A DNA stretch of 64,000 bases from Eledone cirrhosa (Eukaryota). The notes beneath the pieces are model-generated. The model searched no databases and was not told the DNA's origin. It saw only the letters and a program-made list of their open reading frames with translations. This document shows positions 407-62,603 of this stretch, piece by piece; the first letter of the stretch is position 1; each line of letters opens with the position of its first letter. A program made the translations under genes and the position numbers. Location: assembly GCA_964016885.1 (NCBI GenBank), contig OZ024752.1, positions 28,024,001 to 28,088,000 on the forward strand, given 5' to 3'.

Positions 407-630
407 TAGGAACGAGAAGGACGCCGACGGCTGAGCTCAAGCTGAGCTCAAGCTGAGCTCAAGCTGAGCTCAAGCTGGATTAAAATTTTAGTCCAGAATT
501 AGCCGTCGAAACTGCTTGAGCTCAGCCGTTGGGGTCCTACTCGTTCCTATTACCCACTCTACTACCCTAAGTATTGAGTACTTTGGTGCGTTATGGTCCA
601 CCTGGTTCCTTACCACATTTCCTCCGTTAT
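407..630 (+). mobile_element. Short fold-back repeat (putative PLE terminus, gacggctgagctc family)
   Basis: Inverted arms taggaacgag...gacggctgagctcaag and cttgagctcagccgt...ctcgttccta plus a tail ending in (TA)n. Other copies at 26558-26684, 27620-27690, 32140-32320 and 42008-42200. Confidence 0.7.
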
Positions 631-675
631 ATATATATATGTATATATATATATGTATATATATATATGTATATA

Positions 676-862
676 TATTATATTATATTATATTATATTA
701 TATTATATTATATTATATTATATTATATTATATTATATATTATATGTACTGGGTAGCTGCTGGCCTTGTGCCAAAAGTAGAAACAATTATATTATATTAT
801 ATTATATTATATTATATTATATTATATTATATTATATTATATTATATTTTATTATATTATAT
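676..862. repeat. (ATATT)n pentanucleotide arrays around a SINE 3' fragment (744-790)
   Basis: Directly visible. The insert gctggccttgtgccaaaagtagaaacaatt matches SINE tails elsewhere in the window. Confidence 0.85.
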
Positions 863-1806
863 TCCCCACGTACGCCAAATTAGTCATGGGATTCCATGAA
901 CCAAATATTTACAACCAAACCCTTCTATTATTCGGAGAATCTTTATTTACACAACCCAAAAATAATTGTTAGAAATATCTAGACGATTGCCAGGAAAACA
1001 TCAATACACACACTCTTTTCAAAAATATGATAAACAAAATTAACAATAACTTACAATTCACAATGTAGTCCAACTTCAAGGAATTAGTCTTCCTGGATAT
1101 CCTTATTTTAAAAACAGATGCAAAAATAGTAACAGATCTTTTATAAATCCACGCACTCCAAACAGTGCCTCCTCTTCACATCAAATCACCCAAACATACA
1201 AAACTTAACATTCCTTTTAACTTAAACAAACGTATATGCACCATAGTATCAGACCCAGCTAAACGGGAACAAAGATTAAATGAAGTAAAAAACACACATA
1301 CCTTAATAGCCTTCCCAATTGACATAATTAATAACGGAATAGACAGAGCAAAACACGCTAATTTTCATCAAACCAATAACCCAAAGCACAGAACCACAAA
1401 TAATACCTTGCCATGTATATCCACGTTCAACTCCAGAAACATTGAAATGTTCGACCACCTACACAAAAACCTCCCCATTCTACTTAAAGATCTAAAAATG
1501 AAAAAAAGTCCTAGCAACACACAAGATCATTAAAAGAAAAAGGCAACCCAAATCACTAAAACACAAACCAATCTCCAGCCTTACAGTAACAAATTGTGTA
1601 AGAACAAACTCTGTCCCATGCCTATAGTTAATTGAAGGACAAAAATTCACATTTAAAGATGGCCAAGTTTTTATAGTGAAAGACAACTTCACTTGCAACT
1701 CAGAGAACCTGACCTACGTAAGCACATGCGGTGGCTGCCGTCGTAACTACATAGGACAGACGGGTGTGTTATTACGCAAAAGAATTACCATCCATTGCCA
1801 AAATAA
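863..1806 (+). mobile_element. Decayed Penelope-like (Neptune-type) RT/GIY-YIG fragment
   Basis: Remnants PTYAKLVMG, KYLDDC, LVFLDIL, HTKLNIPFNLNKRICTIVSD, then FTCNSENLTYVSTCGGCRRNYIGQTG...RITIH; stops and frameshifts present. Confidence 0.85.
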
Positions 1807-2600
1807 TATTTATATATATATATATATATATATATATATATATATATATATATATATATATATGTATATATATGTGTGTGTGTGTGTGTGTGTGTGTGTG
1901 TGTGTGTGTGTGTATATATGTGTGAAGATATATATATGTATATATATGTGTATATATATGTGTGTAGATTTATGTGTGTATATATATATATATGTGTATA
2001 TATATGTATATATATGAGTGTATATATATATATATATGTATATATGTATGTATATCACTCATCCGATATGGTTATACTTGTAAAATAATAAAGCATACAT
2101 TTTGACGTTCTCTCCGCGTCACTCTCCACCAGTTTCATCCTGTCACTCTCCCATTTCCTTGCTACATCAATGGACCTGTATATCATTGGTCTTTAAGAGT
2201 AATTAGTTTTCTTACAAAACTAGGATCCTACTTTCACCAAACCTCTTGGTATAACAACTCTTCCTATGCATTGAAACTACTAACACATGCGAATATATCA
2301 CTGTCATTCTTACACATTATAAACAACAGTAATTTCTGTTCTCAATCACAATCACCACCAGTACCATTACCTACAGAACACCCATTAACGACAAGAACAC
2401 AAATACAATAATACACCAACAGCACTATCATTAACACTACATCTATCTTTAATGATCCAAGTACAATATCTTATAACACCATTATGCCTAAGAGGGAGAA
2501 CAAAGACCCCCATCTTCACCACTCACAGCAACAGAACCATTGACATCACTATCATAATAATTATCATAAGACCGTTTACCTTTGTAGGTGATAGTTATAA

Positions 2601-2782
2601 TGTACTGGGAGTATGTGAATAGTATGTTCGAACCGTGGTAGTTATGTGTGTGGTTATTCAATTACTTTCTCTATATAAACTCAGCTGTGAAGCAGGACCA
2701 GTGTCCAGTCTGTGAAGTAAGCCATAGCTAACGCATTAGCTCCGAACATTACCAACTCTAAAACCAACCTTAAACACCAACC
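2601..2782 (+). promoter_or_regulatory. Core promoter and 5'UTR of S-crystallin gene 1 (TATA box TATATAAA at 2672-2679)
   Basis: TATA about 110 nt upstream of the ATG; aligns by eye with 37620-37810 (attactttctctatataa...gaccagtgtccagt...ccttaaacaccaa). Confidence 0.8.
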
Positions 2783-2915
2783 ATGCCTTCCTACACTCTC
2801 CACTACTTCAACCACCGTGGCCGTGCTGAAATATGCCGTATGATGTTTGCAGCTGCTGGTGTCCAGTACAATGACCGTAGGATCGAATACTCAGACTGGG
2901 ACAACATGAGAAGCA
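2783..2915 (+). CDS. S-crystallin gene 1 (sigma-GST-derived lens crystallin), exon 1
   Basis: Translates [44 protein letters not shown] plus 1 nt, the cephalopod S-crystallin N-terminus. ccATG context; GTATGT donor at 2916. Confidence 0.96.
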
Positions 2916-60021: not shown

Positions 60022-60189
60022 ACATATATAAATATATGTATATATATATATATATAAATATATGTATATATATATATATATAAATATATGTATATATATA
60101 TATATATATATATGTGTATATATATATATATATATATATATATATATATATATATATATATATATATATATATATATATATATATATAT

Positions 60190-60462
60190 AAGAACAAAAG
60201 ATGGTTAAAAGAGTTCCATGTATTTTATTATGCGCATTTCAAAAACAAATATCATCATGCAATAATATTTGTGTTTTCATCAGATAAAATAGGAAGACAT
60301 GATATGAAGACATAATTTGAAATGCGCATAATAAAATACATGGAACTCTTTTAACCATCTTTTGTTCTTATATATTATGTCTACTCCAGTCCTACAAACT
60401 GTAGAGTGCTTCTTATCCGATATCTGCATTGCTTTATTGTACTACAATAAAACTCACCTCCT
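60190..60462 (+). mobile_element. Fold-back PLE terminus (arms about 60190-60243 and 60316-60371); related pieces at 38650-38850
   Basis: Inverted repeat plus tail in (TA)n. Confidence 0.8.
60221..60291 (-). ncRNA. Minimal hammerhead ribozyme
   Basis: tattttat CTGATGA aaacacaaatatt attgcatgat gatatttgttttt GAAA tgcgca TA ataaaata; palindromic TGCGCA helix III. Confidence 0.8.
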
Positions 60463-60597
60463 ACATATATATATATATATATATATATATATATATATGT
60501 GAATATGTGAATATATATATATATATATATATATATATATATATATATATATATATATATATATATATATATATATATGTATATATATATATATATA

Positions 60598-60970
60598 TGT
60601 GAAAAAGTGAATATAAAATGAAAGTGCTTTTTTAAAAAGGAATGTATTAGGTATTGACATTACTTTCTGTAACAGACGGAATATGTATCGCTGCTTGCGT
60701 AATCATACAATGTTAGCAAGTATTCGATATACATTTGCTATCGAATACTTACTAACATTATATGATTACGCAAGCAGCGATACATACGTATTCCGTCTGT
60801 TACAGAAACATATAATAAATTCCTTTTTAAAAAAGCACTTTTATTTTATATTCATCTTTTCGACATTTTCTCCGGAATATAATTTATACTCGTTGAGTAA
60901 ACCTATACGTACGCTGTTCATCTCTAACGTGACGATATATTATCACTACATTATTGATAACCTGAAATTA
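60598..60970. mobile_element. Fold-back element (arms about 60600-60728 and 60739-60860)
   Basis: tttctgtaacagacggaat...tattcgata / tatcgaata...ttccgtctgttacagaaa plus outer arms. Confidence 0.78.
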
Positions 60971-61306
60971 TATATATATGTATATATATGTGTATATATA
61001 TATATAAATATATGTATATATATATATATGTATGTATATATATATGTATGTATATATATATATATATATATATATATATATATATATATATATATATATA
61101 TATATATATATATATATATATATATATATATATATATATACATATATATATATATATATACATACATATATATATATATATATATATACATATATTTATA
61201 TATATATAAATATATATAAAAAATATATGTATATATATATATTGTTTAACTCTTTAATATATATATATATATGAAAAATGTAATTTTCTACACAAAACGA
61301 AGGTTA

Positions 61307-62603
61307 TAGAGAAAATTGAGGTTGGTAATGGCACATGGAATATATAAGAGACAGAATACTTTTTTGTGAAAAAAGATAATTTTATAAGGTAAGGAAATAA
61401 TAAAGGGTATAAAAAATGACCGGTTTCGATGGGTCTGCAAAAGCCATCTTTTCAAATGTTGATTAATATTAAGAAAAATTAATAATACGAAGAGTTAAAA
61501 TTTGAGATTTGAAAATTCAAGTATAAAATTCATTGTGGGATTTCATAGCAGTTTTCATCTAGGTAGCAACAACAGGTTGACTGCTGTGTCCCTTTCTGGT
61601 AGTGAATGAGAAGTTATTTGGGGTGTGGGTTATTTTATAAAGGTCAGATTTAGCAATCGCCAACTGGCCAGCTGCTGGTCAGTGAGGGGGTGGAAGCAAT
61701 ATGCATACACATATCTTCCTGTGGTGGGTAGGAGAGTGGAGCGTGATAGAAAAGGATTTAGTGCACTTACACCTATATATACACACATACCTTCATCCAC
61801 ACATACATACATATACATATACATATACTATATATATATATATATATATATATACATATACACACATACATACACACACACATACATATACATACACACA
61901 TACACACACACACATATATACACATACACACACATATATATATATATATATATATATATACACACACACACACACATATATATACATACACATACATCCA
62001 GATACACACATACATACACACACACACACACACATATATATATACACATATATATATACACACACACACACACACCCACACATACATACACACACACACA
62101 CATATATATACATACACACATACAAACATACACACACACACACATATATATACACATACACAGACATATATATACACACACACACACACGCATATATATA
62201 TATATATACACATACGCATACATCCAGATACACACATACATGCACACACACATTGCTAAATCTGACCTTTATAAAATAACCCACACCCCAAATAACTTCT
62301 CATTCACTACCAGAAAGGGACACAGCAGTCCACCTGTTGTTGCTACCTAGATGAAAACTGCTATGAAATCCCACAATGAATTTTATACTTGAATTTTCAA
62401 ATCTCAAATTTTAACTCTTCGTATTATTAATTTTTCTTAATATTAATCAACATTTGAAAAGATGGCTTTTACAGACCCATCGAAACCGGTCATTTTTTAT
62501 ACCCTTTATTATTTCCTTACCTTATAAAATTATGTTTTTTCACAAAAAAGTATTCTGTCTCTTATATATTCCATGTGCCATTACCAACCTCAATTTTCTC
62601 TCT
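61307..62603. mobile_element. ~350-nt inverted repeat (61307-61655 / 62254-62603) with decayed hammerhead at 62449-62496
   Basis: Near-perfect arms; aacat TTGAAAA gatgg...ccatc GAAA ccgg TC atttt. Confidence 0.82.

Follow-up and report, generated by a model that had tools for sequence, protein, structure and literature searches.

One-tailed, head-to-head insertions of Penelope-like elements in an Eledone cirrhosa locus suggest priming of reverse transcription from both target ends

Insertions of endonuclease-bearing Penelope-like elements (PLEs), including families from Octopus, are described in two papers as an element joined head-to-head to an inverted, 5'-truncated copy of itself, often with a tail at one end only (PMC8557442, PMC3846280). 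The tail, given as 30-40 bp, overlaps the first codons of the open reading frame (ORF), the 3' region carries a hammerhead motif, and insertion is biased toward (TA)n (PMC8557442); the same layout is reported together with target-site duplications (PMC3846280). For the origin of these inverted pseudo-long terminal repeats (pseudo-LTRs), self-priming has been proposed (PMC3846280), the tail has been ascribed to resolution by the endonuclease (PMC8557442), and an in vitro study left the later steps of integration unvalidated (PMC11167929). Here, we describe PLE insertions in a 64-kb stretch of Eledone cirrhosa DNA (assembly GCA_964016885.1, contig OZ024752.1, positions 28,024,001 to 28,088,000 of the forward strand; hereafter the window, numbered from its first nucleotide). 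The anatomy of these insertions is already published, and the window adds new families of a known architecture; moreover, almost every two-armed insertion in it has exactly one tail.

Two other systems bear on how such insertions arise. The Poseidon PLE of the anole Anolis carolinensis, which belongs to a different clade, cuts and extends both strands of AT-rich targets in vitro, is predicted to form a dimer, and has two internal start sites for its reverse transcriptase (RT) that bound the tail (PMC11167929). Thus, two RT start sites and the extension of both target strands are also already published; the accessible text of that study contains no inversion model, makes no connection between inverted insertions and the two sites, and does not show that one site is used per strand. 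In LINE-1 twin or dual priming (PMC2837659, PMC11702581), both strands prime and inverted pieces are joined at microhomology; the first priming occurs at poly(A), the second is variable, and the pieces are nearly adjacent, with a deletion or duplication of 1-10 bp.

Fold-backs in the window were located by masked self-comparison and alignment of arm ends, giving 15 independent two-armed insertions from five multi-copy families (A, three; B, two; C, five; D, three; E, two). The copy at 59119 was left out because it duplicates the insertion at 57688 together with its flanks (one tandem duplication of 1431 nt, with 1384 matches and 5 mismatches); a preliminary description of the locus had listed both as family A cases, and both have the layout but record a single event. 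In 14 of the 15 insertions one arm ended at an internal site and the other in a tail, i.e. they have the inverted 5'-truncated copy and one-ended tail of canonical PLEs. Both arms ended internally in one insertion (40337) and no insertion had two tails; if arms picked their sites independently, 14 mixed insertions would have P=4.6e-4 in this hand-picked set. The two-endpoint layout claimed in the preliminary description was found at the places it named and, more broadly, at places it had missed, namely in family B (10769-11893 and 16186-16230), family C (26559, 27622 and 32140), family E (38649) and seven single-copy one-tailed fold-backs.

Within families, the ends are fixed. The internal end of family A reads AAGTATAACAA followed by TA in three of three independent insertions and its distal end CATCGCCGC followed by TA in two of three; in family C the internal end recurs in 5/5 insertions and the distal end in 4/5, and families D (22941-25602 and 40997-41554) and E (60191-60464) have the same internal and tail layout. 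In keeping with the earlier expectation that ends would be neither scattered nor usually the same on both arms, 12 of the 14 tails stop at the distal site of their family or at most about 4 nt from it. The main tails measure 58 nt in A, 77 nt in C, 89 and 93 nt in two subfamilies of D and 96 nt in E, as against the published 30-40 bp, and shorter ones of approximately 43-44 nt (26559, 4956) and 35 nt (61273) occur. The families, which had been taken to be unrelated, are not all so: A is a sister of B, approximately 70% alike in the endonuclease region, and has the same internal site, and the tails of D and E are alike.

A TA array adjoins 26 of the 30 outer ends, so that the (TA)n previously placed outside every insertion is missing at four ends, i.e. 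the left ends of 404..627 (397) and 38649 and the right ends of 32140 and 22941. Where the array would be expected beside the family E tail arm at 38649, there is a perfect 56-nt palindrome (38595-38650). The inner sites lie on a TA-like run of 3-7 nt in 5/5 reference arms, unlike the start site of Poseidon, which is reported as not homologous to its target (PMC11167929). However, runs like these abound, and nearby longer TA stretches go unused. Therefore, TA microhomology was rejected as the sole cause of the ends, and position must count besides pairing. The unused longer runs, together with the published layout that has ordinary target-site duplications (PMC3846280), also indicate that the self-complementary (TA)n target invoked earlier is not a requirement.

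The geometry of the arms separates these insertions from simple fold-backs. The tail-less arm extends further 5' in 9 of the 14 one-tailed insertions, the tail arm in three, and two are near ties; thus neither arm was simply copied from its partner. In five insertions (20455, 10769, 16186, 27622 and, weakly, 38649) the two arms have no sequence in common: the tail-only arms are 14-61 nt long and end approximately 32-51 nt short of the inner site, a gap that was noticed post hoc and that for family B assumes the tail length of family A. Plain self-priming is insufficient because of these five insertions. Both features, the further reach of the tail-less arm and the arms without shared sequence, are new from this window; the accessible text of PMC8557442 and PMC3846280 contains neither a count per insertion nor tail-only, non-overlapping arms. 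In the other nine insertions the arms overlap by 34-607 matched nt, which calls for either strand displacement or two RNAs. The overlapping arms diverge by 2-8% in six of the nine and are identical at 26559, 40997 and 60191; private variants are common to both arms at 4956 and 32140.

Joints could be assessed for overlap in 5 of the 15 insertions, and all five have microhomology of the kind seen at LINE-1 inner joints: 4 nt at 26559, 2 nt at 42008, 3 nt at 20455, 4 nt at 27622 (allowing one nearby substitution) and at least 2 nt at 10769, with a chance of approximately 0.19 per joint for an overlap of 2 nt or more. Short repeated pieces (stutters) mark the joints of 404..627 (397), 20455 and 60191, and also the 16475 element's 5' end. 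Host end-joining leaves stutters of this kind. No TA array lies between the arms at 14 of 15 joints, and no joint is common to two independent insertions. In two places, 26527-26537 and approximately 25588-25602, an arm's initial 11 nt occur again immediately beyond it, which looks like aborted and restarted priming; slippage is the alternative. In sum, these insertions are pairs of inverted arms whose outer ends are fixed, with a single tail per insertion and overlaps of 2-4 nt or stutters where the arms meet.

The near-full-length family B element (16475-20351), which has neither an inverted arm nor a 5' start and whose reading frame is split into three or more pieces, encodes an RT followed by a GIY-YIG endonuclease, as in PLEs with a C-terminal endonuclease. 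The GIY-YIG match passes its cut-off (24.4 versus 22.6 bits), the RVT_1 match is under it (21.4 versus 29.6 bits), and the RT has 140 relatives, the best at 45-55% identity. The linker before the endonuclease, CIDKKCITC, fits the Neptune/Nematis-type CX2-5CxxC, and two cysteines between the GIY and YIG blocks with histidines downstream give the CCHH arrangement; motif look-ups in the accessible part of the PMC8557442 supplement gave no close row. The family D frame (24394-24975) has a CNCGIKSNC linker (CxCX5C) and an IIWYSPP block, a likeness in motifs only to Hydra-clade PLEs including Hydra-1_Obim, a clade marked by such a linker, the lack of CCHH and (TA)n targets; its end motif had no match in the accessible part of the PMC8557442 supplement. 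Family E was assigned to PLEs by a hammerhead motif and family C by the 3' half of one only, judged by eye; both assignments also draw on a brief GAGTRC-like motif that C, D and E share with three further families and that lies 50-72 nt ahead of the distal end. A strict type I hammerhead pattern had four matches in the window (10979 in B, 60283 in E, 39549 and 54293), none of them for families A, C or D, and none in the reversed or complemented controls. An Rfam scan gave no match at threshold, no hammerhead was among the 150 of 453 Rfam E-value matches listed, which were mostly microRNA models on simple repeats, and the folds computed for four end regions were unremarkable (z -1.25 to +1.43). 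Tails contain the motif (T/A/C)GA(G/A)(T/C)(A/G)C at 627, 42198, 32316, 41554, 22941, 60464, 45911, 48698, 39686 and 26693, and it is absent from the family A and 60968 tails; it may serve in RNA binding or encode a conserved peptide.

In family A, an ATG-started frame of 27 codons in the tail scored 14.3 bits against the N-termini of six relatives, a score reached by 0/2000 shuffles. Overlap of the tail with the ORF start was found in this manner for family A only; the other families were judged by eye. Among 64 metagenome loci related to these elements, two (L002 and L008) end soon after an ATG, followed by TA, and the assemblies of four (L001, L003, L009 and L030) have direct repeats at their termini, which makes them tandem or circular units running from the 3' untranslated region (UTR) into the ORF start. 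An inverted repeat of some kind was present in 15 of the 64, which are single copies often cut at the repeat, so that arm ends could not be paired; a 22-nt end motif had no match in the metagenome contigs, and a search of viral contigs with the endonuclease returned no relative. Because the tail frame resembles these N-termini and L002 and L008 end after an ATG, the tail probably represents the beginning of the following ORF, and the distal end, judged from sequence, is likely not the RNA terminus. For this reason, and because of the wide overlap of the arms, the earlier analogy to LINE-1 twin priming does not hold: here, both sites are fixed and likely internal, there is no poly(A), the distal end lies inside an open frame, and neither the overlaps in nine insertions nor the gaps in five resemble an adjacency within 1-10 bp.

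Altogether, the one-tail rule and the non-overlapping arms favour integration from two primers, which we regard as the best reading and a probable one. Both cut ends of a TA-array target would prime RT on the same stretch of RNA, one at the inner and one at the distal site. The template would be a tandem or circular transcript that continues from the 3' UTR into the next ORF, placing both sites internally, and the protein, perhaps as a dimer like that predicted for the anole relative, would cleave AT-rich DNA on both strands, each site serving a single time. A polymerase that stalls early after starting at the distal site would leave a tail-only arm of 14-61 nt; one that displaces the other copy would yield overlapping arms. 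The two minus-strand cDNAs might then anneal through fortuitous inverted matches or hairpins, each priming the other, with joining by the RT itself or by host end-joining, and a target end left unextended would give a single-arm copy. Overlaps and short repeats at the joints would be expected because two free 3' ends are joined. The preliminary description had likewise proposed two fixed start sites, one per arm, and joining at microhomology; these elements agree with the 14 mixed insertions, the five non-overlapping ones, the 2-4 nt overlaps at five joints and the anole in vitro work, from which we infer the mechanism. More tentatively, PLE integration may be two-primer by design, with one dimer using one tandem RNA and both target ends, so that the one-tailed inverted pseudo-LTR would be the default product and tail-only arms would stop 32-51 nt short because the partner enzyme sits at the inner site; we consider this possible, with the odds somewhat against it. 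Literature searches, which covered sources other than older subscription papers, found no two-primer model for these elements, and the accessible parts of bioRxiv 10.64898/2026.07.22.740005, PMC13282606 and PMC9977147 added nothing on mechanism.

Several observations count against integration from two primers. All counts come from the sequence of one window, and the set is small and hand-picked. Family D insertion 40337 is symmetric; its origin from two different RNAs was considered and dropped, since its arms are 92% alike, near the 94% of 22941. Third end-points exist: in 2 of the 14 insertions the tail stops early, at an intermediate TA-like position, 14 nt before the distal site at 4956, where a shorter tail had already been noted, and approximately 36 nt before it at 26559. 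Among ten further fold-backs without a second two-armed copy, which are uninformative on fixed sites, seven are extended on one side, the other three (43977-44698, 54670-54887 and 11986-12053) are symmetric and revealed no link to PLEs, and the short arm of the 45530 fold-back stops 253 nt upstream of the distal end. Joints 26559, 39490 and 45530 are palindromic. The overlapping arms in nine insertions need strand displacement, which is hypothetical, and the start site was equal on both strands in vitro, with no coupling reported in the accessible text of PMC11167929. Finally, families C and E have no ORF in the window, and for family A the N-terminus profile consisted of 5 of 43 proteins plus L001, chosen by eye, pairwise BLAST of one tail and N-terminus pair found nothing, and an unrelated frame scored equally high in a six-frame scan of the window.

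The main rival is staggered cutting of a hairpin: priming would occur once, the cDNA or an antisense RNA would prime itself by folding back, and the endonuclease would cut the hairpin unevenly, leaving a tail on one arm. Its two parts, self-priming from palindromic joints (PMC3846280) and a tail made by endonuclease resolution (PMC8557442), are published, and it too would yield strict asymmetry. The perfect palindromic centres, the three insertions with identical arms and the private variants at 4956 and 32140 all fit it; the shared variants, however, are equally expected if both arms derive from one RNA. Without cutting, self-priming fails in 9 of the 14 insertions, since in a plain fold-back the second arm copies the first and the arm reaching furthest 5' must therefore bear the tail. 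With cutting, the five insertions whose arms share no sequence would require the internal site to be cut in a single-stranded loop, and the anole RT starts in vitro at the ends of the tail (PMC11167929). We therefore consider this route unlikely, if a serious contender.

A variant of the dual-priming kind proposed for LINE-1 (PMC2837659), in which both target ends prime on separate RNAs and choose sites independently, would explain the symmetric 40337 and overlapping arms without strand displacement, and the one-tail rule would then be a matter of sampling or selection. Independent choice predicts approximately half symmetric insertions, compared to the 1/15 seen, and subfamily variants are common to the arms within an insertion, which makes this variant improbable. 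Nested insertions in TA arrays (16127-26130) and the TA between the arms at 38649 and 28481 are what would be expected if arms were serial, separate insertions into one array, or if fold-back mini-elements spread as units; given that 14 of 15 joints lack a TA array and that no joint recurs among independent insertions, we give this very little credence. The duplication at 57688 and 59119 could be a product of assembly, but sequencing or assembly artefacts at TA arrays are hardly credible as the source of the fold-backs themselves, because arms differ by 2-8% in six of nine overlapping cases, family ends are fixed to the base, joints are stuttered and insertions of this layout have been published in other animals. 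At least 8 sequencing runs, drawn from 4 studies, contain words of family A (shares 0.31-0.68), which does not count as evidence on this question.

These models can be told apart, in any long-read genome and in the existing assay, by two things open to counting: the near-strict one-tail rule and the tail-only, non-overlapping arms. If integration from two primers is true, PLEs, which are relatives of telomerase, routinely use both target strands, unlike R2 or LINE-1; if it is the default, it would supersede self-priming and endonuclease resolution as explanations in two or more clades. In octopus annotation, moreover, such stubs can be mistaken for miniature inverted-repeat transposable elements or DNA transposons.

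Table 1. Fold-backs, single arms and coding features of PLEs in the window.
Feature	Coordinates	Strand	Remarks
Family A fold-back	57688..58587		838-nt tail arm (endonuclease end, 3' UTR, 58-nt tail) and 62-nt internal arm
Family A, tandem duplicate of 57688 insertion with flanks	59119..60018		not independent
Family A, ATG-started 27-codon open frame over internal site and tail	57688..57768	-	resembles N-termini of full-length relatives
Family A fold-back	4956..5273		tail on shorter arm, 14 nt before distal site
Family A mini-insertion	20455..20546		17-nt tail-only arm, stuttered joint, 55-nt internal arm; no arm overlap
Family B fold-back	10769..11893		1115-nt internal arm and ~14-nt tail-only arm; hammerhead motif 10979 (-)
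Family B mini-insertion	16185..16230		34-nt internal arm and ~15-nt tail-only arm
Family B near-full-length PLE	16475..20351	+	RT, CX4CxxC linker, GIY-YIG; single arm to internal site, stuttered 5' joint
Family C fold-back	404..627		repeated 11-mer at joint; left flank not a TA array
Family C 80-nt perfect palindrome	26558..26682		tail arm stops at intermediate site; first 11 nt of arm repeated at 26527-26537
Family C mini-insertion	27622..27698		26-nt tail-only arm and 55-nt internal arm; no arm overlap
Family C subfamily fold-back	32140..32316		right flank TATATA only, distal end less sure
Family C fold-back	42008..42198		internal arm extends ~9 nt further 5' than tail arm
Family D (Hydra-like) fold-back	22941..25602		756-nt tail arm; 1.9-kb internal arm with ORF end (24394-24975, -)
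Family D fold-back	40996..41554		167-nt identical arms; 93-nt tail on right
Family D counter-example	40337..40627		both arms end at internal site
Family D single arm, internal end	29420..29608	+	
Family D single arm, internal end	51161..51248	-	
Family E fold-back	60191..60464		tail-less arm longer, with hammerhead motif (60283, -); 96-nt tail
Family E non-overlapping arm pair	38649..38848		short TA run between arms; weak case, may be two events
Single-copy one-tailed fold-back	39490..39686		hammerhead motif, 71-nt tail
Single-copy one-tailed fold-back	60599..60968		~108-nt tail
Single-copy one-tailed fold-back	26693..26887		80-nt tail, left side
Single-copy one-tailed fold-back	22619..22928		164-nt extension
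One-tailed fold-back	45530..45911		short arm ends 253 nt before distal end, upstream of hammerhead-like core
One-tailed fold-back	28481..28890		TA array at centre; right boundary uncertain
One-tailed fold-back	61273..62612		350-nt arms with hammerhead-like core; 35-nt tail on left

The window has 31% G+C and is rich in TA arrays, and the named relatives of its reverse transcriptase, 63-83% identical to it, come from Octopus vulgaris. Octopus S-crystallin is matched by an exon at 49271-49366 (E 1.5e-15), and exons 49259-49407 and 4129-4277 are related (87% alike); the window probably belongs to a cluster of S-crystallin genes.

One short end is present in three copies (16127-16162, 16267-16312 and 20724-20769) that all stop at the same base before TA, the third being joined head-to-head to a GIY-YIG frame (20770-21260); these copies likely represent a sixth family with tail-only arms, whose inner site was not found in the window. 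A TA-flanked piece of 35 nt (20601-20635) is an inverted copy of the end at 26096-26130, 5.5 kb away, and this pair may bracket a nested cluster. A further family with a common TA-bounded end (22200-22473, 40141-40327 and 51263-51502) lies near a family D arm in each case; one of its copies is extended by 39 nt, and the family also has a palindromic joint of 35 nt. Inverted duplications around a central TA array comprise the three symmetric single-copy fold-backs named above, in which the arms end at the same base, and 53986-55018; that at 43977 has a weak hammerhead-like core. Such duplications may come from snap-back of broken TA arrays rather than from PLEs.

Outside the fold-backs, a dispersed repeat family of 150-200 nt, which we take to be SINE-like (short interspersed element), occurs in both orientations at 10547-10734, 26270-26460, 32986-33184, 34157-34579, 50528-50716, 55986-56195, 62691-62889 and 63454-63675. 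Moreover, a non-LTR element that encodes a zf-RVT domain is represented by three copies of its 3' end, which are 96% alike (7393-8630, 42450-43451 and 48697-48970) and finish in (TACA)-type repeats.

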